DNA of 64,000 nucleotides from Bispira polyomma (taxonomy: Eukaryota). Where the stretch lies: the NCBI GenBank assembly GCA_965649765.1, contig OZ287751.1:16120001-16184000 (forward strand), read 5' to 3'. Position 1 is the stretch's first letter; each line of letters starts with the position of its first letter. Position numbers and translations under genes: made by a program. The notes beneath the pieces are model-generated. The model did no database searches, was not told where the DNA came from, and saw nothing but the letters and a program-made list of their open reading frames with translations. Below, one piece after another: positions 655 to 37,334 of the stretch.

Positions 655-2025
655 CTAACGGTTACTTGTTTGTTCAGAATTTTTGTTCAAATTGGACTTA
701 AAACATTTGAATTCTGGATACACTGCATCTTTCCCCAATGTTTTTGAGCAGTGCCAACAAATATGCCTATAATTAGTGTGATCAGTTTTGTAAGAGCATT
801 TCCCATTGTTAAACAATTTGCAAATCATCTTAAACTCATTGGATTTCCCCTTAGACGCCTCATTACTGGTATTATTGTTATTTCCCCCTATTAATGCCAT
901 TTGTGATGCATTCAACCTATTTAGGGCCCATTGCGTTTGATTGTCCCATGTCAGTTGCCCCTCTTCCACCTCTTGCATGCTATGACCCCAGGCCGAGCGA
1001 ACTACATGCCAGGGAAGAGCAGCTGCATCTCTTAGTGTATGGACCACTTGCTGGATCATACCTCGCGATAGCGTCGGATCTGTCACCAATAGGACGTTAT
1101 TAAGTTGCCCGGCTGCCCACTGAGCCAAGGATAGGTCGTCAGAAGTGCGCTTTCTTCTTGTGTTTGCGCCCACCCAGCCCTCGTTCGGCCACCGAAGTTT
1201 TGGATCTGCAGTGGTGACGTCCGAGCTCTTGTAGCGTCTCGACTTTTGTTTAGCAGGTGTCTTACCTTGTAAGATATCTTTCTGGATGCCAGCTTCATAG
1301 CCTGCTAGCTGACTGGCTATTGCTGCTTGTATGGCTGGAATTGCCCGAAGTGTGTCCAACTGTGGTGCGACACCGTCCCTGAGAAATTCTTGCTGAACCG
1401 GAAGTTGTGTGACCAAACCAGGAGTGGCTGATGAAGTGCTGCTGATCTGAGTTGCAGGGATCGTCGTGGGTGGATTCGCCCCAGTAACACCTGTAACCGG
1501 TGTCGTAAGTGTGACTCACTGCGTCTGTGCCGTTTCCACCCTCCCGATTCCCTTGCTCAGTTCGGCGTTCGATGTTTCCAACCTCCTAAGGATAGCCAGC
1601 ATTTCGTTTGAATTATCATGGCTGGTGACTGTATTCGCCAAAGGTTGTTGCCCCTGAGTAGTCGGTTGCAAGGAACTGGTCCCGGGTAACATTGGGAAAC
1701 GTGGAGGTGTGACCCCAGCATAAGTAACGTCTTTCTCTACTGTTTGGTAACCCAGCGTGTTGGGAAGTAACACGTTTGCGTTGATGTTCGAGGACGCACG
1801 TGCTGGTGTGGCCTGAGCATAAGCTGCTTCGATACTGGCAGAGACCGATGAAAAGGGATCTGGAGAGTGGTCAGACGACCTAGAAGCTAGAGCCGTTAAT
1901 TGTGCTTGTACTTCAGAAGCTATAAAGTCTGATACCTGTTGGCCGTCGGCCGTTGGGATCCCCTGTGATTTCTTTGTCCTTGCCTTTGTTGTTTTCGCCA
2001 CGGGTGTCTTCTTGGTCTTGCCCAT
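655..2025 (-). pseudogene. gag-like ORF1 of E1 with one in-frame premature TGA (1516-1518)
   Basis: ORFs 1516..2043 and 655..1416 are in the same frame; ATG at 2025 (MGKTKK); Cys/His zinc finger at the C-terminus. Confidence 0.8.
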
Positions 2026-2391: not shown

Positions 2392-5300
2392 CTAGTAACG
2401 GCTGATCCTTCCCCGCAGAGCTCCGAATTCCCTTAGCAGCCACGCTAAGGGCAAGTATATGGAGGAAAAAATCGCACCGTCACATGGTTCAAAGAACGAA
2501 TCATTCTGAGGCCGACTTGCAAACCCAATACCACACTAAATGTACCCTATAACTAGAGAGGGTGGGTGAGGTAATTTAGCCATGTTTACCCTTTGCTTTT
2601 GGGTTTAAAAATAAAGAGATAGGCAAATTAATAATTGCATTGGCTGATGAATCGGTTTTGAACCCCAATTACCACAATGCATGTGGTCGGTGGGAAAGTT
2701 ACAGTAAAGCGGCTAATTTATACGACTAACAAGTCATGGCCAAAGACAGTGACTCCAGCATACTGGTAGCAGTAAGTTTTAAAATAAAACCTAAACATTA
2801 ACTGTTTGATACAACAAATTTAATCAGACTGGACAACTTGTTTTAGACAAAAAAATATGTGTAATATACTACTATACTCCTATGTTGTATTAATTAATGT
2901 CGTGACTTTATAAAAAATGGAATTTGTTATGAAGAAAGTATTTTGTCATGTGATGGTGTTTACATAATTAAGTTGGCATTAAATGATACCGTATGTACTA
3001 GGAGTTTTGTGTAACAACCTTATGGTGCTCCAATTTATTAACATAATACTCCCAACAACACACCCTTTGGAAATGATTAATTAATAAACCCACTCCAAGT
3101 TTAAATCATGATAAAAATAGTAGAATTACAATATCTATCAACAAACATGCTACAATCATTCCCTATCAGAGCATGACAAAACACACCATTGAACTATTTC
3201 TCCCAATAAATCTCTTCCCCCCCACCTCAATAAACCTAAACTTAAACAAGCACTCCCCCCCTCTCAAAAACAGTAAAATGATGGATAAAAAATTGTTGTT
3301 CTTATCTAGAAATTGGAGGTTAATGCTATTTGATGTGCCAGATATTTGGTGGTAAAGGTTGCAGTCGGGAGTCTCCCCGCAGGGCAATAAGTTTTGCTGG
3401 TCTGAACAAATGCACCATCATGGAGATAGGAGGCCAGTTTGCCCCTCACATAAACCCCTCTTGGCTGGTCCCTTTGCTACTGGAAGAGCTTGAGTTCATA
3501 TTGGTGGGGGCTTTTCTGCTATAGCAACAGTTTTCACCCTAATAAGTCCAAGTGAGGAAATGCTTAAAAATCCTCCCCAACTAAGGATTTCATTCAAGTA
3601 AAGATAAGATTTTTTTTGGGCACAGTTAGTTTGTATTTTAAAATTTAACAGAACTTACAACAGATGCTTAAAATGTATTTGGTTTTGATTTGAATGGCTG
3701 GTGATTTGTGGTGATGTTTGTAAACTTAAACATTACCATTTAATAACAACACATATAATGTACATATTATCGTTTTTTTTATCCTTAAGCTAATCTTCTT
3801 TAGCCATAGAGTCATAATTGATATAAGCAACTTGGGCACAAGTGCTTTGGGTGCTGCTATAAATAGCCACAAATGGCTAATAGTCTTCCATCTTTGATTG
3901 TCGCTTTCCCTCTTCTGCACTCGGGAACCTGAAGCAATTATTGCTTATTGCCAACTCTCTTACAATGCGATGCTTCTTTAAAGTAAAAATGCTGCATTGC
4001 AGTAAGGTTTTTAGTTGTTAACTTATTCTATCATGGAATTAAACTCAATTTGCCACTTGCTTACTTGCTTTGTGCTAAATTCTACCAGGTTATGTAAGTT
4101 AAGAGAAGGTTAGGTCATTCCATATGTGTTTATCTGTTATTTTTCTTAAAAATAGTTATTATCAGCACTAATTTTTTTTCATGTTTTCACTACCTTGTGT
4201 TTGTTGGTTTGTCTGTTAGCAGGATTACAAAAATACTACTGATGCGATTTCGATCAAACTTTTTGACAGGCTAGAGCATGGGGCAAGGAAGGATCTATTT
4301 AATTTTGGCGGATTACATAGCCCCCACCAAATTAGCACTGAGACAAAAAAATGTGAAAAAATAATTTCCTTTGCAGAAATGCGAAAACTACTGAAATAAT
4401 TTTGACCAAACATGGTTGGGGAACTAGGGCGTGGGCCAGGAAAGAATCCATTCAATTGGTTTTGTGTCAATTTTATGTAGTTGACACGGGATGGGCCAAA
4501 ACGTGAAAATATGCATGCTTTAGGATTACGCTTTAGGGGGAACGTGATGCCTGGTGGAGGGAAATTCGCTCTTTGATCTTAGCACCCTTCTCAATATTAA
4601 ATATTTAGATGTCAAATAGCAAGTAGAAACCACAACAGTCCAGATAAGAGAAAAATCCGGTCTAGTGAGAAGTTCTGTTCACATTAACTTTTAACTCTGA
4701 TCCAATGGACTTTTCCTAAGCCCACAGTCATGGTTTTAGCTAGTAATTTCGGGGTGACCTAGATGACCTACAATTCACACTGGCCATACTCAGTTTATGT
4801 GGTTTACTCAATCTAAAGTGATCACCCAGCATGCAAGTTGCATTCTGAACACGCCCCTTGAACCCAATTATAACTCGTTCTTTGTGTGACAAAATAAAAT
4901 GCATTCTTTTAATGATCTTAAATAGTCAATTGTCAGTATACAGTCGTTTGTGGGTCGAGTTGAGAACACATCACTTTCTCTGTAGAATCAATAGGTGGGT
5001 TCTAATTAGGCAATCACATGGTGCTCACAGGGTGATCCGTACACGCGGCCAACTTGACAGGGGTCATCTGTGCGATCCTAGTGATGGATGGCAGTGCATT
5101 GTCAACCTCCCCTGTGTGAGCGATCTATTGCAACAATTCCGGTTCAAAGTTAAATTGTTGCCTCGGTTGTGCACAGCAGTGGGTGCTGGACAGTTGCTAG
5201 ACGCACCCTAGGCCTTTTCAATTCATTCAAAACTCAATCTTGTGGCAATCACCAGTAAAACAGAAATCTCAAAAACCAAATCGCTGAAGTGGGAGGTAGG

Positions 5301-12196: not shown

Positions 12197-13147
12197 ATGC
12201 TGCTGGAGATTGAAAAGGGCAAGGTAGACTGGAAAAACTTAAGCAAAATTCATGAACTAAGGTCTAGGCTCACCCAGCGCACCCTTAAGGACAATAACCA
12301 AAATGATTCATCTCAAGGTTCTGCTGTAAGTCAAAAATCTAAAGCAAAATCCAATGTCCTCATGTGTATCGCTTTCAATAAAGAGACATGTAGTCAGACA
12401 GACAACCACATCTTTGGTAACATGAAACATGCTTGTTGGAAATGTTATAGTCAAGGGAAGCACATTCAGCTTCATAAGGAAATTAATTGTGAAAAGAATA
12501 ACATGAAATCTAGGGACTCCCACAAGGAAGCCCAAAACTGTAGCCCAATAGTATCTAGGGTTTTTTGGAATAGTAAATTTAGTGGAAAACTGGAAAATAG
12601 TGATTGGGTAAATAATAAAAAGTTGGAAAATGTGTGTAGTAATAGTAAATGTCGTGAATCTGTTAGTGTGGGAACTGTATATAACACCCCGAGGGTGTGT
12701 AAAAAGTTTCATAGTATATGTTGTACAGAGTCTAAAAATGTAAAAGTCGTGGGGCTCCCGCTAAAATTCAAGGACGGGAAAACGAGCCTAACTGGGTGTA
12801 TAGTGGGATTCCCAAGCAAAAGTACTAGCAATTGTTCTATACAAACTGAAAACAATGTCTGTCATAAAAAGATTGTAAATACTAGTAAACAAGTTGGCAT
12901 GGTTCACAAAGGGGTAAAAGTGGTGGCAGAAGTGTCACAATCCCTAGTGAGGGATACAATAGGGATTTCCCCCCCCCCCCCCCCCCCCATTACTCAAGTC
13001 AATGACGTTCAGGGCGAACCCCTTTCAGACCCCCCAAGGTGTTACCATAATGGGTGTGAACAAAAAAAACAACAAAAAAAAACATTCGGGGCTCATCCCC
13101 TCATGGCACTTCATTGTGTCATTCAATCAAACCAAATAAGCCTGTAG
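12197..13147 (+). pseudogene. E2 gag C-terminus (zinc finger) fused to pol N-terminal linker
   Basis: EIEKGKVDW..CIAFNKETC..H..KHACWKC..H..C, then reads through the TAGGGAC junction. Poly-C and poly-A tracts occur near the end. Confidence 0.7.
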
Positions 13148-13313
13148 AGGCTATTGACAAAAAAAAAACACGTGTGGTGTTAAATCAAGTGAAAACTTTG
13201 GATTTATACGTAAATACAATGCGGTTTAGGGTATCCCTGTCACCAGAAATATTATCAGTTGTGACTCGCAGAAACAATGGGCGGTGACACCACACAGGGC
13301 CGTGAGTGCTTGG

Positions 13314-14924
13314 GGTTGTCCCAATTATAGAGGTGCGTGCATTCTAGTACCCTCAGAGTTGAATATTGATGCATGGTGGGAAGTCCTTTAAGGGGATGGG
13401 GATAAACAACTTTGTGAATATCTCGAGTTCGGTTTTCATCTTGACATGCAAACTGAGGACTTTAATTTTAATAACAAAGTTGAAAACCATAGCAGTGCTT
13501 TAGAATTCCCCGAAAGTGTGGATAAGTATTTCATAACTGAACGTCTGCATAAAGTGTTAGCGGGACCTTTCAAAGAAAACCCTTATAAAAAACTGCATTG
13601 TTCTCCTGTCATGACCTGTCCTAATAATGATAATACCCGTCGCTTAATTGTTGATCTCCCGTGGCCACTTGATGGCACCTCAGAGAACAGTAGGGTCACA
13701 GATTGGGTATATGACAGTCAAAGCTTTGTTATCACCCTCCCGACTATTGACATGCTTGTAGAACGAATTAACCAGATTGGCCCTACTGCAAAAATATACA
13801 AGCTGGATCTTTCCTGCGCTTTCAGAAACCTTCGGATTGATCCAGGTGATTATAAGTACACAGGTTTACAGTGGGGTGACAGTACCTACATAGATCTTGC
13901 AGTAATGATGGGGTACAACCATGGTACGGCCATTTGTGAAAGGGTCACGGACAGTATGCGTCGCATTATGTCTAGAAAACAATTTAAAATTTGGAACTAC
14001 ATCAACAATCTGGTTGCCGTGGAAACCAGTGAAAGAACAACGGAATTATTTGATTGTTTATATAGCTTGATTAAGTATCTGGGCCTCCCCATTAACCCAA
14101 AGAAAGTATTTCCTTCCTCGGAAGAAGTCGTATGTATGCGAATTATGGTTAATGCTAAGACAGGTACCCTCACTATCCCGAAAGATAAATTGGAACAAAT
14201 TAAGCTTATGTGTAGACAATGGAAGGGCAAAACTCGGTACACGAAAAGGGAGTTGCAATCAATACTTGGTAAATTGTTGTATGTGCATTGTTGCGTGTCC
14301 CCCGCACGTTTGTTTTTAAACAGGATGTTGAGTTTATTGTGACAAACCTATCCCAGCAAAAACATTGTACTCACCAGAGGGTTCAAAGCGGATCTGAATT
14401 GGTTCAATGAATTCTTGGGTTCATTTAACAAAGTAGTTGAAATGCACTTGAGAAGTGAACTAATGCATGAACTTTACGTTGACACTTCTCTGGTTGGCAT
14501 TGGTGCTGTATGGAGTGAAAACATTTTTGCTGCTGCCCTCCCAGTTAGCAAACCCATGTGTCTTGGAATAGTACATTTTGAAATGTGGAATGTCCTAGTT
14601 GCACTACGTGTGTGGGGAAAAAGTTTCAGAAATTGTACAGTGAAAGTGTGGTGTGATAATGGGGCTGTGGTGGCTGGTTTAAACTCAAGTCGCTTTTATG
14701 ATCAGTACTTGGGGATTATGGCCCGTTCTATTTGGCTGGAGACAGCCAAGTATAATACCAAACTTGACGTTGTTCATATAGCGGGTGTTAAAAACATACA
14801 GGCTGATTATCTTTCAAGGATGTTAATACCTGGTCACAAAAATGTAAAAGTACATGAGGAAGTATCTAGAAAGAAATGGTGGGATGTCACTTGTGGACAT
14901 TTCATACTAAACACACAAATTTAA
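13314..14924 (+). pseudogene. E2 reverse transcriptase / RNase H
   Basis: RLIVDL, KLDLSCAFRNL, YINN (YIDD mutated), LQSILGKL, YVDTSL, CDNGAVV, HIAGVKNIQADYLSR. In-frame stops at ~13389 and 14340. Confidence 0.92.
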
Positions 14925-14936
14925 TTTCAATTTCAG

Positions 14937-15910
14937 ATTCTCCACTACGAAAACACCTCACCAATGCAGCCCTAGCTAGGTTAGAAAATGCTTTGACATC
15001 TAGGACAAAGCTAGCTTATAGCAACTGTATTAGGCCATTCTTGGCATTTGCCATTTTTCTTGGAGTGTCTGACATCTCATCCCTCCAGTTCATCTTGCAA
15101 TTTGTGGAGTATCTTGCTCAACAGGGGCTCAAAACCCCTTCAATTCAGAATTATTTAACCGCTGTAAAGCATTATTTCATGTTGTGGACCTTTCCAGTGG
15201 AAGTATTCTCTCACCCTCAAATTAGATTATTCTTTAGATCACTTTCACTGTCCATCCCTTACTCACCCAGATTAAAGGGCATTATAACTATTCCAATTCT
15301 TACAGCCATTGTGCAGCAGCTTACTGCATTTCCACATGCTTATGTATTTCAGGCATTGTTTCTCACTGCCTTTTTCAGGTTTTTCAGGATATCTAATTTA
15401 GTCCGTTCTAGTATCAGTCAATTTAATCCCCAGAGGCATCTCACCTGTGAGGATTTCGTGTGGGGCTCACCAGGAGTGCACATAGCATTAAGGTGGGCGA
15501 AAAATCTCTAAAAATACAACCAATATCATGTGATGTAGCTTCCTGTTCTGAAGAATAGTTTATTATGCCCTGTCAGGGCTCTACGATATACGTTTGCTAA
15601 GAATAAAAATAGTAATGAATCCCCAGTCTTTATGTATCAGAGTAATAGTAGATTTATCCCTGTTACAGCTTATAAGGCTAGGCAAGTTTTAAGAGAAATT
15701 ATTGTTTTATTGTCATTGAACCCTCAATCTTTTACTTTCTATTCATTTTGTTGCTCAGGGGCAACCTTGACATTTGACAATAATGTAGAATTGCAGACAA
15801 TCATGGCTCATGGCAGGTGGAGGTCATCTGCTGTATGGACATACCTCCAATCCACTGACAATGCAACTGCAATGGTTGCTACCTCCCCACAAAATAGTAT
15901 ATCACATTAA
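14937..15910 (+). pseudogene. E2 tyrosine recombinase
   Basis: FFRISNL (catalytic R), WAKN (K), YSFCCSG (decayed HSFRRSG), HGRWRSSAVWTY (catalytic Y). Two in-frame stops (15509, ~15536). Confidence 0.9.
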
Positions 15911-28489: not shown

Positions 28490-29000
28490 TTTATTCGCGA
28501 TTTTAAGACTGTGTGTAATCTGGAGGAAATTTTTAACATCTGGGTATAAACTGGATATAAACTGGAGAGATCAGCAAGATCTTGTGTCAGAGCCAGAAAT
28601 TTTGAACATGTTCAAAACTTCCGTGGATGGTTGGCTTTTAATGTGACCTCTGGAGAGAACTGGAGAGGTCGGAGCCTAATATGGAAATAATATTGGCATA
28701 AACTAATCAAAACTTGTGTCATCTGGACAGGACTGGTGTAATCTAGTGTCATCTGGAGCAAACATTGCATAAACATGAGATGATCTGCTTGTATATGGTA
28801 TGGTCTGGGTAAAATCTGGTTATAATCTTGTGTGGTATGGTAAAAACTGGGCATAAACTGGGCATAATCCTGGGTAAAAACTAGGCATATGCTGTGCATG
28901 ATCTGCAAATAAGCATTTTTCACACATTCTCTTTCGATCGGCCAATCTCTAATGATCTGGGCTAATTGTAGCTGAGAACTGCGATAGTGTGATCGCTACA
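28490..29000 (+). mobile_element. MITE-like element; related inverted copy at ~43470-43860
   Basis: Central palindrome ttttgaacatgttcaaaa; the body ggcataaact..aacttgtgtcatctggacag..gcaaacattgcat matches the reverse complement of 43590-43705. Confidence 0.55.
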
Positions 29001-29756
29001 TAAACAAGCGTTGTCAAGTATCTTTATACCTGACTATTCTATAGAAATAATGGCTGCTGTAATTAAAAGTGACCGACATAAATATATTTTGGTTACTGTA
29101 AGTATTTTTGCTCCAGACTACTGTCAGGAAACATTATGCTATACAGAAAAAATTCATATTAAAACATTAAAAGCATTAAAGGAGTTACCAAAGTATGCAT
29201 TGGGGTTATGAAGTATGCCTGGACAAAAAAACCCAGTCAGTTGATTCCGGAGGATTTCAGGGGCAAAGAGTTATTTGCATGCACCGAACTGTCTGTCATG
29301 CAACAAACTGATTAACTTTGTGAATATAGAAGACATGCGTAAAGGCAAAATAGCTTTTGTTCAGTTAATACAGGAAAAATACAAGTTTCCAGCATTAAAA
29401 TGGTATATAGCTTTTTTTGTTATGAAATGCCAGCCTGTGTATTAATGCATAAAAAGGTATAATGTAAGATGATAAAAAAATGGTAAAAATGGCCCCCTAA
29501 GGAAGATCCAACATGAAAGTCACTTCTAAAATATACACTCCCCCCCCCCCCCCCCCCAAAAAAAAAAAAAAAAAAAAAAAAATAATCAATGTTGTAATTT
29601 CGTCATTAGTTCCTCGGTGTGTGGGCAAATGATAGATGATTAACCAGCAACACTTAGTGAGAAAAGATTGCGGTTAAATACTTTTCTTATATATATGATT
29701 TCTATTGCTAACATATTTTTATATACAGTTTCTTTGTAGAATAGGTAATACTGTTG

Positions 29757-30067
29757 TGGGCATAAGGTCCCCTTAACTCAAGTGAGTTTAAGGCCTTAAG
29801 CTTATACAAAGCTTGGGTTAAGGTGACCTCAGGTATAATGAGTTTAGGAGTATAAGTATGCCAAAGTTGAGTTTGAGTCCAAACTTAAAGGATCTGAGTT
29901 TAAGGTTGAGAGTTTAAGTTTGGTAGAAAGTTTAATTTAAGGGCAAATTTAAGCGATTAAACTTTAAATTTATGCTAGTCTAAAGTTTGACTTAGGGTTT
30001 TAAGTTGAACTGTAGAAACTTGAGTACAATATGTACTAATATAATGAAGGGGGGGACCTTATGCCCA
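29757..30067 (-). other. E3 3' module bounded by a perfect 16-bp inverted repeat
   Basis: tgggcataaggtcccc (29757-29772) and ggggaccttatgccca (30052-30067); internal ttaaggccttaa and ttaaggtgacct. Confidence 0.75.
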
Positions 30068-30120
30068 AAAAAGGTATAATATTTAGTGTTATTTAGACAT
30101 ATCTTAAGCCTAAAATTTTA

Positions 30121-31108
30121 AGTTAGACCACCAAACCCCAAACTAGTAGGTGTTTTGTAGGACATCTTTAAAAGAATCTGCAACTTGAGTACCAGCATCA
30201 GCAGAGTCTGAGATGTAACGCCACACGCAATCCGACGTCCAGGTGCCCTGTTTTTGAATATCCTGAATCTTGACATTATTGTTAAATGCAAAGGTGGCAC
30301 CTGAAGGCGTGAAAGGTCAAGCCAGAGTATTGAGTACCAAGTAAGGATAGTACATTTTTGAGGTGCCTTCGCACACGTGTGTCCGTTAGTGGAACCCACG
30401 AGCCATGGAGGTTAAATTGAAATAATGGGAGATTTTTTCCTTTAGGTGAGATGGCTAACACAGCTTTCAAGGCCTGAATAGGACAAAGAGTTGAATTATT
30501 TATACTAGGGATGGTTAGCAAACAAACTGCATCATTTCTCTGCAGTGTCTTAGACCATTTAACCATTATGACTGCATACCCTGGCTTAAACAGAACATCA
30601 GCTCTAGCTAATTGCTTAAGAGGAGAGTAAGACCCCATTGAATGAGGGCACAAATTGGATAAACGCAAGAAAGTAAAAAAACTTGTCAAATAAACAGCCT
30701 TGAAAATTTGGCCCATGTAAGTACTATCACATTTACTAATGAGAGCCCTAAGCAAGTGTACATCAAAAATTGACTTCAATTTTGTTTGTAAAGGTATATC
30801 TTTAGTGAAATAAGCAATTCTCTGATGAGAAAATACTTGAACATCTATATGACACATAACACATTTTGCCTTCACAGCCAAGATGTGATTTACTACCTGA
30901 GAGGCCGAAACACCATTGAAATTTAGAAACTCTAAATATGCTAGAATTTGCAACACAGTCACCTTGTGGGGAGGCCAAGACATAAAGACTCCAAAAGCTA
31001 GGAACTGTCGGAACATTCTGTCATATGCTTTATTAGTAGCAGGAGTGAGAGCTGAGTTCAGCCTATCACAAGCCCGTCTCATCAGAGCCAGACCCACAGG
31101 GTGAGTGC
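30121..31108 (-). pseudogene. E3 tyrosine recombinase (small deletion/frameshift at ~30300)
   Basis: FLRLSNL, WSKT, FHAFR / frameshift / GATFAF..IQKQGTWTSDCVWRY. Confidence 0.92.
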
Positions 31109-31133
31109 CTGGAAAAGAGAAAACTGAGACCTG

Positions 31134-33665
31134 CTATATAAGAGTATTCACATAAAGTAAATTTTCAGGGGCAGGAAGCCATTGAATTGGTCCAGCCAGT
31201 TGGTTTAATAATAGGTGGTTATTTTCTGTCTCAGCCCATCTGGAAAGTAAGTCAGCCACTTTGTTCTCTCTACCTAGAATGTGGACTACAACAATTTCAA
31301 TGTCAAACTTACTGGCTAACATGTATATGTTTCTGGTATAAGTAGCCAATATGGGGTCTCTAGTACGGCCTGTCTGTAAGACACTGACTACTGCCTGATT
31401 GTCACATCTTACTAAAATTCTCTGACCCCTCCATTTTTGGACCCATAACTTCATTGCTACCAAAATGTTCAACATTTCAAGAGAAGCTATATTATACTCT
31501 GTCATACTTGTAGGAACTTTAATTTGGTATACTTGGTTTCCATAAATCCCCCCCATGCCTGTGAGGCAGGCATCCAATTGTATCTCGCCTGATATGGGTT
31601 TATGTAGGAAAAAGGAGACACCATTGAACTGCTCTGCAAAAGTTCTAAACCAATTTAAGTCACATCTGAATGCATCACTTATTACAATTTTAGTTTTACT
31701 GTGATTATCTCGTAGCAGTTCCAACATTCTATTCAAGAAAACCCGAGCATACTTAACACATTTAGAGATATATAGCAAAAGGCCCAGTAAAGACTGTAAT
31801 TCTCTTTTGGTACAATAATTTATTGAAGCCCAATCCCTGCACTTGCTCTGAATTTCTGCCATTTTTTTGGATGGGATAGAAGTTGTGCATTTGACTGTGT
31901 CAATTTTTATGCCCAAGCATACTGCCTCAGTGCTGGGTGGAACCATTTTTTTCTGACTAACTGTGAGACCTAATTCAGCAAGCAATTCTTGCAGTCTTAT
32001 AAATGTTTTCTGAATTTTGCAGGGAAGCGATACACATAAAAAGTCATCGATATAATTGTGGACGTTATGATTTTCAGAGTGCATTATGAAATGCACTGCA
32101 TCCGAAATTCGTTGAAAAATTGTGCTGCCATTCAAATAACCGAACGGCAGCGATTTATCGACATAGTAAGATTTCCACTTCAGCCCTAAGAGGTCAATGT
32201 CGCCAGGGTCAATGGGGACGTGGCAAAATGCCCTACTCACATCTATTTTAAATATCTGACACCCCTTACCCAATTTAGACACTTCAGTAGTAAGATGATC
32301 AATGGAAGGGTAAGACAGTAAAAAATCGACACCCAGATACGAAGTCGACGAAGCACCTGCATTTACGGAAGCCCCTTGAGGCCAACTCAAATTCACAATC
32401 ACCCGTCGGTTAATCGAGTTGGGTTTATGTCGGGTCATTAAGGGGGAGCAATGCAAATTCTGAATTGGTGGAGTGTCGAAAGGACTAAGCATTGCCCCAA
32501 AACCACATTCTTCCTTCATCTAGGCGTCTACATGTTGAGGAAATTCCTCCGCCGATTTATGGTTATTTTCATTCGACTCAGTGTGAATTTTCCGACATAC
32601 ATCAAGAGGGAATCCGTATTTTATAAGGAGAGGCAGTTGCCAATCCCAGTATGTTTGTAAATACTTTCCCCACGTTTCAGCATTTAATTGAGAATGGACA
32701 GGAATCTGGAGGCCAGTGTAATTATGCCTGCCATCAAAACGTATTTTCTTGTGCATTTCTAATATGGATAGTTCGTGCCCTCCCCCACTGTGGTCGGCAA
32801 TCTCACCGCCCAGAGCCGAGAGAGGAATAAATCCATAAGCATGACTACTCTGGTCTTGCCATTTTTTGTGTGTTTGATTCGAGGCCGCCTTCTGCAGCAA
32901 CTCCCTTTTATTTTTCTTGTGCTTTAAAGCACACGAATACTTATCAGAGATTTCAACATTTTCATTCACACGTTCTGCGCAAGTACTTGTCTCTTGGTGC
33001 TTTGCAAAGCCCCCATTGTTATCCGGCGTGTTACTAGAGCGAACGGCCCTCACAATGACTGCATTGTCCTCCACAGGTATCTGTGCCAACGCGGAAAACC
33101 GATTGCTAAGCTGAAGGCCACAGTTAGCTTCATTGACGCGGCTCTTTTCGCCCCCCCTCTGAATCGATTTTCTAACACCTTTTGTCTCCACGCCCTGTTG
33201 CTTTGTGCATGGGGGTCGCTTTACAATAGGTGTCACTTTGTTAACCACTTGAATGGAGGTGCCAATTACAGGTGTTAACTTTTCAAACCTTTGAATAGAT
33301 GTGGCAGCAGAGGTGTCAACATTATTCTTGAGTTCATCTCTGCCAACCTTTTGTGGTTGGCAAAATCTGCCCTTTGTCACCTTTCCAGAGCTGAACCTGT
33401 CAACCCCACCCTTATGGCTCAGACTTTCTGCATGTCCAGTACTATATACAAACATTGATTTCCTGGTACTAGCAGTACTTTTTAAAGCATCACTATAACT
33501 AACATCAGGCCTTTTGACCTTCATATAGCTACACATTTTCTGATACACATTTTTTCCCAACAAATGAAAATCTTTGAAGCCTGTGCCGTAGACAGTTCTA
33601 TTTACAACCTTAAAATTTTTCACCTTTTTAACCACTGCATCAGAGCAGTGGTCCCTCAGTTTTTT
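31134..33665 (-). pseudogene. E3 pol (linker-RT-RNase H) with one premature TAG at 32520-32522
   Basis: KYGFPLD, KIDVSRAF, SLPFG, NYIDDF, LDACLTG, CDNQAVV, HILGRENKVADLLSR. The frame is open from the slippery site at 33665. Confidence 0.93.
33631..33665 (-). promoter_or_regulatory. Predicted -1 programmed ribosomal frameshift signal (A_AAA_AAC + 6-nt spacer + 8-bp hairpin)
   Basis: GCA AAA AAC TGA GGG ACCACTGC TCTGAT GCAGTGGT; pol is in the -1 frame relative to gag. Confidence 0.7.
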
Positions 33666-34701
33666 GCCTCTTTTTTGCTACACATACTGGTCTTATGACT
33701 ACCCCCACAAGTTTCACAACCATGCCTATACATCTGCCCCCCTGTGTTGTGTGAACTAGAGAACTTGCAAGTCCCTTCCTGGAAGAACCTGCAAGGTGTC
33801 GACTTTTTCAGACTAGTTTTACTGCTGCCAGTGCTAACAGCACGGCCATTCGCCCCCTGCATAGATCTCGACACACCTACATGACATTGGGCGTGTGCCC
33901 TGCGAATCCGGTCGACCTTCTCGACATCCAACCACCCGAGCTTGTCCATTTCCATATTGGTTAGTCTACCGCGTGGCAGGCCTTCGCCACCTCCCACGAA
34001 AAGTCTTGGGCATCCTCCATGAGGCCACTCATATAATCTAGCATAGCGGTCTTAATTTCAGTCGACTTCTCCTCCTGAGCGATCTGGGTGAAGCCACAAA
34101 CCCATTGTACAAGGGTTAGGTCGTCATAACTAGGGCGAGTCTTCGAGCTGCCCGTCAGCACATAATTCTGGGGCCATTCGACCGCCTTCTTTGCAATAAC
34201 CTCGTTTCCCCCAGTTCTCTGAGACTTAATTTTACCTGAGGGGTTTTCATTAAGAGACCAGAGTTCCTTTAATCTCTGTTCGACTTGCAACTGAATGTGA
34301 GCGTTCTGATTCAAGAATTCGATACTTGGAACGACAGTATCTGAGCCAGTAGGTGCGCCTTTACCTTCGTCAGCAGAGACTAGCTCTTTAGAAACACTAG
34401 AAGTAATGCTAGAAGGAACGGTACTTGCCTTACTACTGGTGAGGTTGGCTGCTAACGCTGCCTCCGTCTGCTGGACTCGCTGATCCATCCCCTCGGCCAC
34501 CTGACTAAGGGATTGTAACTGCTGCAGTATAGCGCTAGATACAGCCTCGTTCGGATGAACCAGCGAGTCCTCATGAGAGCCAGCGTCAAGCCCCACTCCC
34601 TCACCCGAGATATCAGGCATATTAACCAAACAGTTTCTTCCAACCGGTCTCTCATGCTTTTGCAAACATTTCGGACAAAACACAGTCTTTTTACCTGGCA
34701 T
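33656..34701 (-). pseudogene. E3 gag-like ORF1 (frameshift at ~33965)
   Basis: N-terminal CPKCLQKHERPVGRNC; EWPQNYV..YDDLTLVQW..FSWE; C-terminal CRFFQEGTC..H..YRHGCETCGGSH..C. Confidence 0.85.
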
Positions 34702-36199
34702 GACGTGAGTGTATATTGAATTAAAATACTAAAAGCACATAACAGGGTAAAACGTAAACCATAAAACACTCTCTTTGTCACCCAAATGGTATTTGAATTT
34801 TCTCTGCTCTGCTCTTTTCTCTACTCTGCTGACAAACGGTAAAAGGCGGGAGAATTTGAAAGGGGGATGGCCTATATACTCGCCCATCCATCCCATAATA
34901 GTGAACAGCCTGGTACCCCAGAACTGAGGCCGCCAACGCTGGGGGCGTTAGCTTTCAAAATAGATATGTACGCTATTGATAAACTCACAAAAATATTTCA
35001 GTATCAATTCCAACCAAATCCAAGCCAACCAAATCCATCTACAGCATCAATTGTATGCGATGTATTAAAAAAATGCTAATAATATAAATATATAAAATAT
35101 GGTCCAGTTTAGTGATCTGAGGTAGTGCTTCTGCATAATAAATTCTCTAACTTTTATAGAATCATTATATGAGCTCAATAAACATCATATTGTTAAAACC
35201 AAAGGTAACTTAATTGGTCAAATGTACGATAATGTAGTTTTTCAAGAAAGTCATAAAATGGTAGATGGTAACATAAATGATTTATGTTGGATAATATGGA
35301 ATAGATACACTCAATTGTCCCTTGAGGATTTGAATGTTATCATTAATGATTTAATGTGTAAACTAAATAACGGTACTTTTTTAAAATAAAATAATAACTA
35401 AAAGTTATATTTACAACATTTATTTTAAATTTGTTCCTTCAAAGCACAACTTCTCTACATTGTAATATTGTAAATAAATTAAATTTGGTGCTACACAACT
35501 ATAGTATGTAATACAAGTAAAAACTTGTAAAATGCACAAGAAGTTTACGCAATTCCTCCTAAAAGAGCAACCATACTTAGCTATTATAGCTTTGTTTACA
35601 TCCTGAGTAATGCTGACCTTAACAAAAACCAAATGAGCACCTAAAATATAACCACACGGCCACTGTAATGTACTGAGAGCTACCACATCACATCAACTAA
35701 TAAGTAGGCTGGTGATAGATCTACTCAGTGTAGGTATAAGTTCCCCATCTCATGGGGTGTGATACCAGTCCCAAGCTGTCATAACAAGACTTCTCACTCC
35801 TACCTTCCTACCTGCCAGAATTCCTCTCTTTATAGTTCTTTGTCAGCCAGCGGGGGCCATATTCACGAATGTGTAATAGGCTTAACCATAATATGTATGT
35901 CTAAAATATTTAAGGACTGCCTACTGTTTAGTCGAAAGTCTGGAGAGCAAAGTTAACACTAACCAAATATCTCCTTTCTTTGCTTCCATTGGAACGAGGA
36001 CCAAAATCCAAACCTTTTTCGGCCATGAAATCAAACACCAAAATCTTAAGACTAAGTTAAACCTGGCAGGCATTTGGACAGCAATATATTATCTGTTTAC
36101 TATTGCTATAATTAAAACCTCTTCTCCTGCTGTTATGTTTCTCTGGGTATATTGTACACGAAGGTAATGAACTGGTATACTATACTAGCCGTGACCTTT

Positions 36200-36357
36200 A
36201 AGTTGTGTGTGAGGTCAAAGATCAAAGGCCAGAGTGAAAGTGATATGTAAGGTTAAGAAAAATATTTAAGATATTTGTTTAAAAATTTATCAGTTAGTAA
36301 GGGTTGTGTGAGGTCAAACAATCTGAGGCCAGAGTGCAGGTGATATGTAAGGTTGAG
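36200..36357. repeat. ~55-bp direct duplication at ~100-bp spacing
   Basis: gttgtgtgaggtcaaa..ggccagagtg..gtgatatgtaaggtt occurs twice. Confidence 0.6.
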
Positions 36358-37334
36358 TATTTGTAGTTGAGTATTTGTATTTGAGATTTTTGTTTTTACT
36401 TTACCAGTTAGTAAGATCAGAGTTAGGTGTAAATGTAAATGTATACAAATGTAAAAACAAAGTTTTAAACTCTTCATGGCCAACATAAAATAAATTTAAG
36501 CACAAAATTAGCCACAATAAATATTATAGAAGGTGAATGTAGAAATAAATGCATGGCTCCTGTAATGACATATTGGAAATGTATTGTCACTGCGGTGTTT
36601 CTTAACTCATTGAAGGTTAATTTAAAAGTGAGGTGAAGGACAAATTATATTATATATGTAATGGATGAATGCACCTTATTGGTTATTAGGTGGTCGAATA
36701 ACAGTAAAGAATGTAACTGTTTTATTTATTTTTAGTTATTTATTTTTTTTTTTTTTTGGGGGGGGGGGGGGGATAGGGTGTAAGCAGTCACAATGTTCTC
36801 ATGTGATTGCGTCAATGAAAATAATATCAACAGAGGGGGTTTTAAGCTTTACTATTCATTATTATATCTTTAATATGAGGATGTATTACTGTTGCAGTCA
36901 ATAAATTTACCACATGATTCATAATACCTGGAACCTTTATTGTAACGAGAATATAATATAGATGAGCAGATGTAGAATTACTTGCATAGTTTAAAATTAC
37001 ACGACTCCTTGTAAAGCCATAGCAAAATACAAGTCAGAGAAACACATCATATATGGTAGATTAAGTTTTAGATTTGTTTTAGTTGAATGTCAACTGAGTA
37101 TTGTCATAGGCAGTTAACAGGTGGAGGAAAGGTTAGCATAAGTTTTTGTGTCAAGGTTTTTTTTCTTCACTACAAATCCCCAAAAATTGTACTACCAACT
37201 TTCTCTGGAGGGAGTGCAGTATTTAGGGCTTGTTCGTTACAGAGTGTTTCAGGCAGAAACAAAAAGAATTGATAATGTTGAAACGAAATTTGATAAAAGT
37301 AGTTATAACTTAGGTGAATGTTCACATATATTGT

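Follow-up and report, generated by a model that had tools for sequence, protein, structure and literature searches.

The window analyzed here, 64,000 nt of the Bispira polyomma genome (GCA_965649765.1, contig OZ287751.1, positions 16,120,001 to 16,184,000 of the forward strand), contains three defective copies of a single type of element, designated E1, E2, and E3. These are Ngaro-like tyrosine recombinase (YR) retrotransposons, in which gag, a pol that encodes a reverse transcriptase (RT) together with RNase H, and a downstream YR all lie in the same orientation. An initial annotation of this DNA had proposed that a conserved splice skips pol, so that the recombinase carries the N terminus of gag. 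Comparison with relatives supports this proposal at the sequence level. The predicted splice design is real and deeply conserved, within a known superfamily, and the recombinase is probably made from the spliced RNA as a fusion of the N-terminal part of Gag to the YR (Gag-N/YR).

In E3, the gag ATG at 34701 is followed by 466 coding nt, or 155 codons plus 1 nt, up to the donor CCCTCAG/GTAAAA (the slash marks the splice junction; exon end 34236). The acceptor, TTTTCTCTTTTCCAG/GC, has its last intron base at 31109, lies 25 nt past the pol stop (31136-31134), and is phase 1 in the YR frame. The E1 donor ends its exon at 1266 after 760 nt, which is 253 codons plus 1 and again phase 1, and the E2 acceptor, AATTTCAATTTCAG/AT, ends at 14936, 12 nt past the pol stop (14922-14924), also in phase 1. 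These positions and phases match those of the initial annotation. Its statement that the E2 YR has no nearby ATG was only partly borne out: an in-frame ATG lies at 14876, 60 nt upstream in the pol tail, but it is not conserved in relatives.

All three copies are damaged. E3 has a gag frame break near 33965, an in-frame pol stop at 32522-32520, and a YR frame break near 30305; E1 has a gag stop at 1518-1516 and is truncated early in pol; and E2 is missing the part of gag that bears the donor. The joint 34957 to 29608 of the E3 terminal repeat is present in contigs from sequencing runs. Degenerate repeats of 11 nt and about 100 nt flank E3 (window 28532-28914 and 36199-36428) and are unrelated to it as far as checked.

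Table 1. Positions in the window of the three copies and of the features predicted in them
Feature	Position	Strand	Remark
E1	about 1-2100	minus	
E1 gag with phase-1 donor AAG/GTAAGA at 1266/1265	655..2025	minus	TAG-G, pol continues in same frame
E2	about 12200-15900	plus	
E2 pol stop and phase-1 acceptor TTTCAG/AT	14922..14936	plus	
E2 tyrosine recombinase	14937..15910	plus	Stops at 15509 and 15536
E3	34957-29608	minus	
E3 5' terminal repeat A1, about 154 nt	34804..34957	minus	Repeated at 3' end of family copies, e.g., L002
E3 predicted exon 1, coding part (gag codons 1-155 plus 1 nt)	34236..34701	minus	Zinc finger, long helix, helix pair
Second CAG/GTAAAA 9-mer, gag codon 3, phase 1	34689..34697	minus	Family-specific rival donor; not in sister family L031
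E3 C-x2-C-x3-H-x7-C finger	34630..34677	minus	Finger in 8/14 elements
E3 conserved phase-1 donor CAG/GTAAAA (Ser-Gly-Lys)	34230..34238	minus	GT in 26/27 family loci covering site
E3 predicted 3,127-nt GT..AG intron	31109..34235	minus	Gag core, gag/pol shift site, whole pol; from exon arithmetic
E3 gag/pol signal: A AAA AAC, gag stop, 9-11 bp stem	33630..33665	minus	Same in L031, L042, L048
E3 pol (RT, RNase H; no methyltransferase)	31134..33677	minus	Pfam RVT_1, RVT_3, RT_RNaseH
E3 polypyrimidine tract and acceptor AG	31109..31123	minus	AG in 29/29 family loci covering site
E3 predicted exon 2, tyrosine recombinase	30144..31108	minus	Frame break near 30305 in this copy
E3 3' region B	29608..30130	minus	Copy stops here without A2-B2

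Donor and acceptor signals across families

The relatives compared comprised a 30-locus sample of the E3 family, 60 loci picked from YR and gag searches so as to span families, 22 metagenome loci, and 372 proteins from other assemblies. Searches of viral-contig and genome-contig collections returned no relative. In an RT tree that took in only the loci of this analysis, without reference Ngaro sequences, clades are more than 1 change per column apart, a divergence at which synonymous sites are expected to be saturated from one clade to another.

The codon of the donor glycine is GGT in 22/22 families, compared with 71/211 control glycines of the same elements, as the initial annotation had predicted for relatives. 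(An identity of 1.0 between L073 and L095 in this donor-codon comparison is an alignment artefact and was disregarded.) An A directly follows GGT in all 22 families, +5 is G in 15/22, and -2 is A in 17/22. Blind scoring of donors around the Gag WP motif put the top site in phase 1 alone in 15/17 clusters but in only 71/259 control windows; the 17 clusters include one duplicate and one broken copy, and the two misses were a tie and a frameshifted copy. The residue after the donor glycine is K, N, or T in the 22 families. Among Gag proteins from other assemblies, 81 of 101 have the motif and 77 of these 81 carry the donor glycine, which is followed in 77/77 by K, R, M, T, N, or S, residues whose codons can begin with A and which follow any glycine in 46% of cases. 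That unlike residues share a first base indicates a constraint on the RNA rather than on the protein. The most distant clade (L094, L095, L096, and L100) has its donor about 30 codons downstream, past an L/W-P motif. There the site reads G/GTACG, each of the four elements using ACG, a rare codon for Thr, and phase 1 is retained.

The donor is predicted to fall at a Gag domain boundary. A model of Gag from a relative has helices at 50-87, 133-138, and 140-161, and the donor, at residue 163, follows the last of these in a low-confidence linker that precedes the helical core. A fold search with the Gag model, in which a retroviral-type capsid fold was looked for, gave no clear match (best Z, 5.2). 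The initial annotation had placed a C-x2-C-x3-H-x7-C finger in the Gag-N piece. The finger is present in E3 but not generally; it occurs in 8/14 elements and the E1 clade is without it, so the fused piece need not include it.

For the acceptor, 105 YR N termini were anchored on a conserved tyrosine. The top-scoring acceptor in a 99-nt window was in phase 1 in 29/35 clusters formed at 85% identity, compared with 88/233 control windows (p 6e-8), and in 19/23 clusters at 70%; the phase given by the initial annotation thus recurs in relatives. After this blind test, L014, L018, L040, L076, and L106 were left out as frameshifted duplicates or degraded copies, leaving 30 representatives from the elements' own genome and from metagenome contigs. 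All 30 have a phase-1 YAG 71-101 nt upstream of the tyrosine codon. In 24/30 the distance is exactly 80 or 83 nt (background, 7.5%), values that were chosen after the data were seen. T is found at -6 in 29/30 and at -5 in 26/30, C at -3 in 24/30, and a purine at +1 in 29/30. The pyrimidine share ahead of the site is 0.70 (control, 0.56), and the AG-free zone upstream has a median of 30 nt (control, 15). Within the E3 family, the acceptor lies 23, 24, 25, or 26 nt past the pol stop in 31 copies. The N termini of YR proteins predicted in other assemblies are frequently rich in F/Y and have S-G, T-G, L-G, V-G, or S-D at the place of the acceptor, indirect evidence consistent with the footprint that an acceptor would leave. 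In L091 (3615-3950), 334 nt separate the pol stop from the acceptor, and an additional strong acceptor-like site, at 3778, lies upstream of a YR-frame stop.

Donor consensus, pyrimidine-tract acceptor, and matching phase are together those of a GT-AG intron. The predicted exons, with reading frames open on either side of the junction, join in frame in 14/14 elements with an intact exon 1, across introns of 2,248-3,464 nt.

Several observations weigh against a conserved mid-gag splice or qualify its statistics. Each gag holds several donor-like 9-mers of equal score; in the E3 family two others, CAG/GTAAAA at codon 3 and AAG/GTAAAG at codon 113, are in phase 1, and in E3 the codon-156 donor is singled out solely by conservation across families. 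The branch-point motif YTRAY, 15-45 nt before the AG, was found in 17/30 representatives, with 12 expected from shuffles, and in 159/660 coding windows, and is not clearly enriched over the shuffles. The families share ancestry, so the p-values overstate independence; the donor glycine was placed by eye; and the 14 elements in which the join was checked had been selected because their exon 1 was intact. Exact-pattern searches of five families recovered no genomic copy lacking the intron; the E3 family had a control (70 matches of the exon-2 start) and the other four had none. This absence is a mild point against the splice, since the spliced SD' RNA of murine leukemia virus (MLV) is copied and integrated, but is what one would predict if C-terminal Gag fingers, or a signal carried by the intron, are required for packaging. 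No Gag-YR fusion occurs among the 372 proteins from other assemblies, entries that look like unspliced open reading frame (ORF) calls. The joint 31108-34236 was not among the 15 of 46 joints listed for three read runs, which behave like genomic DNA and are uninformative on expression.

The multiplicity of donor-like sites bears on one alternative in particular, that a genuine acceptor is paired with a different donor, for example near the gag start, giving a recombinase with little or no Gag. The codon-3 and codon-113 sites of the E3 family score equal to the codon-156 site, and other families also hold several donors that score 7-8/9. However, no other donor is found at equivalent positions in different families, and the sister family L031 lacks the codon-3 site. 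Conservation of the mid-gag site extends to its nucleotides in 22/22 families, which calls for a function. A different donor is the alternative least well excluded, and we consider it unlikely.

The gag/pol border and the route to the recombinase

The signals at the gag/pol border differ between clades. In the E3 clade (L031, L038, L042, L048, and L049), gag ends in A AAA AAC and a stop, with a 9-11 bp stem of about -18 to -22 kcal/mol, an arrangement resembling a -1 frameshift signal that would yield Gag-Pol. In the E1 clade (window 657-655, minus strand; L071-L090), the gag TAG is followed by G and pol continues in the same frame, and four metagenome elements (L091 and L095-L097) have a gag TGA with pol in the same frame; both arrangements look like stop readthrough. 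The gag/pol signal thus appears to have switched between clades while the predicted YR splice stayed. A second conserved acceptor, serving pol, was not found in 14 elements; in 7 of the 14 the scan had no anchor and reached just some 1.2 kb past the start of pol. Between the gag end and RT, L031, L042, L073, L078, L084, and L087 carry a poorly conserved but open stretch of 200-400 residues, of which L095 and L096 have almost nothing. Pfam detected no protease in the 5' parts of pol.

Recoding of this kind might also operate at the end of pol, where a second frameshift or readthrough would yield a Gag-Pol-YR polyprotein. This has been proposed for Ngaro: the available text of PMC13003380 (section 3.4) quotes Poulter and Butler 2015 to the effect that YR overlaps the end of pol in the -1 frame and that frameshifting is probable. 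Seven of the copies studied here do have a 4-16 nt pol/YR overlap in the -1 frame, but only 1 of the 7 has a canonical slippery heptamer. A single-member 861-residue protein, P0121, has RT/RNase H joined directly to YR, a fusion that apparently arose from a short deletion across the acceptor region. Relative to pol, YR lies in the -1 frame in 10 of 24 elements, in the +1 frame in 8, and in frame 0 in 6, and in 7 of the 24 (among them L003, whose pol end is uncertain) a YR-frame stop follows the pol stop. The polyprotein would explain neither splice signal, and the spacing of stop and acceptor, which takes values of 23-26 nt within the E3 family, also speaks against it. We regard this explanation as very unlikely.

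If the recombinase instead had a start codon of its own (AUG or not), reached by reinitiation or on a subgenomic transcript of an internal promoter, the splice-like signals would be by-products. An ATG does lie 20-40 codons before the conserved tyrosine in 5/30 representatives, and E2 has the one at 14876, but 25/30 have none in that interval. Over the 30 representatives, the position of the first YR ATG spans -88 to +72 codons relative to the tyrosine. In several young, intact families, it falls within or past the core-binding domain; that of L073 encodes residue 88, where the core-binding domain (residues 25-92) is ending. This range makes a separate start unlikely, and the invariant AG, the T at -6 and -5, and the AG-free zone fit an acceptor rather than a start context. 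Initiation at an ATG of its own, which the initial annotation had named as the competing possibility, is the least probable of the explanations weighed. The lack of both a conserved YR ATG and a fixed YR/pol frame also argues against the frameshift model.

The Gag-N/YR splice would work as follows. A phase-1 donor in mid-gag would be joined to the phase-1 acceptor just past the pol stop, and the product would be a fusion of about 460-660 residues, in which exon 2 is predicted by modeling to supply the whole Cre-like enzyme. Unspliced RNA would encode Gag and, by -1 frameshift or stop readthrough according to clade, Gag-Pol, and would serve as the genome; the moderate strength of the donor may leave most of the RNA unspliced. 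The role of the Gag-N piece may be to deliver the recombinase to the nucleus or into the particle, much as Pol is brought along by Gag, a suggestion that we hold more loosely, at about even chances.

Identity of the elements and known systems

E1, E2, E3, and their relatives are Ngaro-like by the features given in the available portions of PMC9210276 and PMC4157794, rather than by a tree with reference Ngaro sequences. No methyltransferase Pfam match was found in the pol of E3 or of five relatives, and pol ends about 35-40 residues beyond the RNase H D-x-L-S-R motif. Split direct repeats (A1...B1 A2 B2) were recovered, with both A and B, in 12 of 28 self-compared loci from all three own-genome clades; many of these loci are partial or cut short, and E3 itself retains A1 and one B. 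The A2-B2 spacer of fuller relatives is 0.7-1.3 kb. A PAT-like YR retrotransposon was rejected since there is no methyltransferase, and a DIRS1-like element was rejected on the same ground and because the terminal repeats are direct, not inverted. The YR of a relative models as a two-domain Cre-like recombinase (pLDDT, 85) and matches Cre structures (PDB 1crx, 5u91, and others) with TM scores of 0.65-0.69 over about 330 columns; a search of PDB sequences with the YR profile returned 0 matches.

Many Ngaro-like families reside in the B. polyomma genome. Some are very young, with identical YR scores across many loci and terminal repeats that are 99-100% alike. Many copies, including E3, L001, L003, and L004, stop after one B region without A2-B2, which is what B1/B2 recombination would leave; L002, L016, and L034 are fuller. 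The young copies L031, L033, L057, and L078 sit inside or beside tandem-repeat arrays, possibly a target preference.

According to the available portions of PMC9210276, PMC4157794, and PMC3783388, Ngaro elements (order DIRS) share with those described here the gag, RT/RNase H, and YR in one orientation, the lack of a methyltransferase, and the A1...B1 A2 B2 repeats. They are described as having three ORFs and, through the quotation of Poulter and Butler 2015, a probable frameshift into YR, whereas the prediction for the present elements is that splicing joins YR, as an exon, to Gag-N; the 0.7-1.3-kb spacer of the relatives is a further difference from the described elements. No such splice was found in the literature for Ngaro or DIRS elements, in a search that did not extend to the 2004 paper of Goodwin and Poulter, the 2015 paper of Poulter and Butler, Repbase, or supplements, which may mention it. 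Natural splicing of these elements was likewise not found in the available parts of PMC7192593 (12 of 15 places), PMC9341512, PMC4157794, PMC12477816, PMC3783388, PMC3266345, PMC9210276, PMC6681497, and PMC13003380. A conserved splice likely replaces the frameshift explanation given in the literature.

The fusion also sets these recombinases apart from those of the Cre type: exon 2 alone matches the core-binding and catalytic fold, and Cre has no Gag-derived N-terminal module. Reaching a downstream gene by splicing gag and pol out of a genome-length RNA is familiar from the subgenomic mRNAs for retroviral env and foamy virus pol. In those cases the donor lies at or before the gag start and the product has no large Gag domain, unlike the fusion predicted here.

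The closest precedent, as far as the available text of PMC10496198 goes, is the SD' RNA of MLV and its P50/P60 products. An alternative donor within gag is joined to a late-pol acceptor, skipping protease and RT, and this attaches integrase sequence to the N-terminal part of Gag. Virions contain packaged P50, and reverse transcription and integration of the spliced RNA also take place. P50, in contrast, is an accessory protein whose integrase portion is limited to the final 116 residues of a DDE enzyme, Gag-Pol being the source of full integrase, whereas the splice predicted here would be the sole route to a whole, essential recombinase. Also unlike MLV, no copy of a spliced RNA was found here in the five families searched. 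A looser parallel, from the available text of PMC5580714, is the shGAG splicing of Ty1/Copia elements in Arabidopsis, likewise a conserved alternative splice that balances structural and catalytic proteins in one compact unit. The Copia splice yields a short Gag-only RNA, whereas the one predicted here removes pol and brings in a downstream enzyme.

The third Ngaro ORF is without a start codon, and its translation has so far been explained only by a guess, frameshifting; the splice offers a specific and testable answer. It would change what is taken to be the actual recombinase protein, with consequences for annotation and for biochemical work on the enzyme. It is about as likely as not that across animal Ngaro-like elements the YR is never a free ORF but always a spliced Gag-N/YR protein, whose Gag tag loads the enzyme into the particle of a protease-free element. 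If so, the three-ORF annotation of the superfamily would be wrong for the third protein, and a single RNA would use frameshifting or readthrough for Pol and splicing for YR. The splice suggests a route by which a protease-less retroelement may package its integrating enzyme, and it would parallel, in an unrelated lineage, the retroviral trick of MLV SD'/P50.

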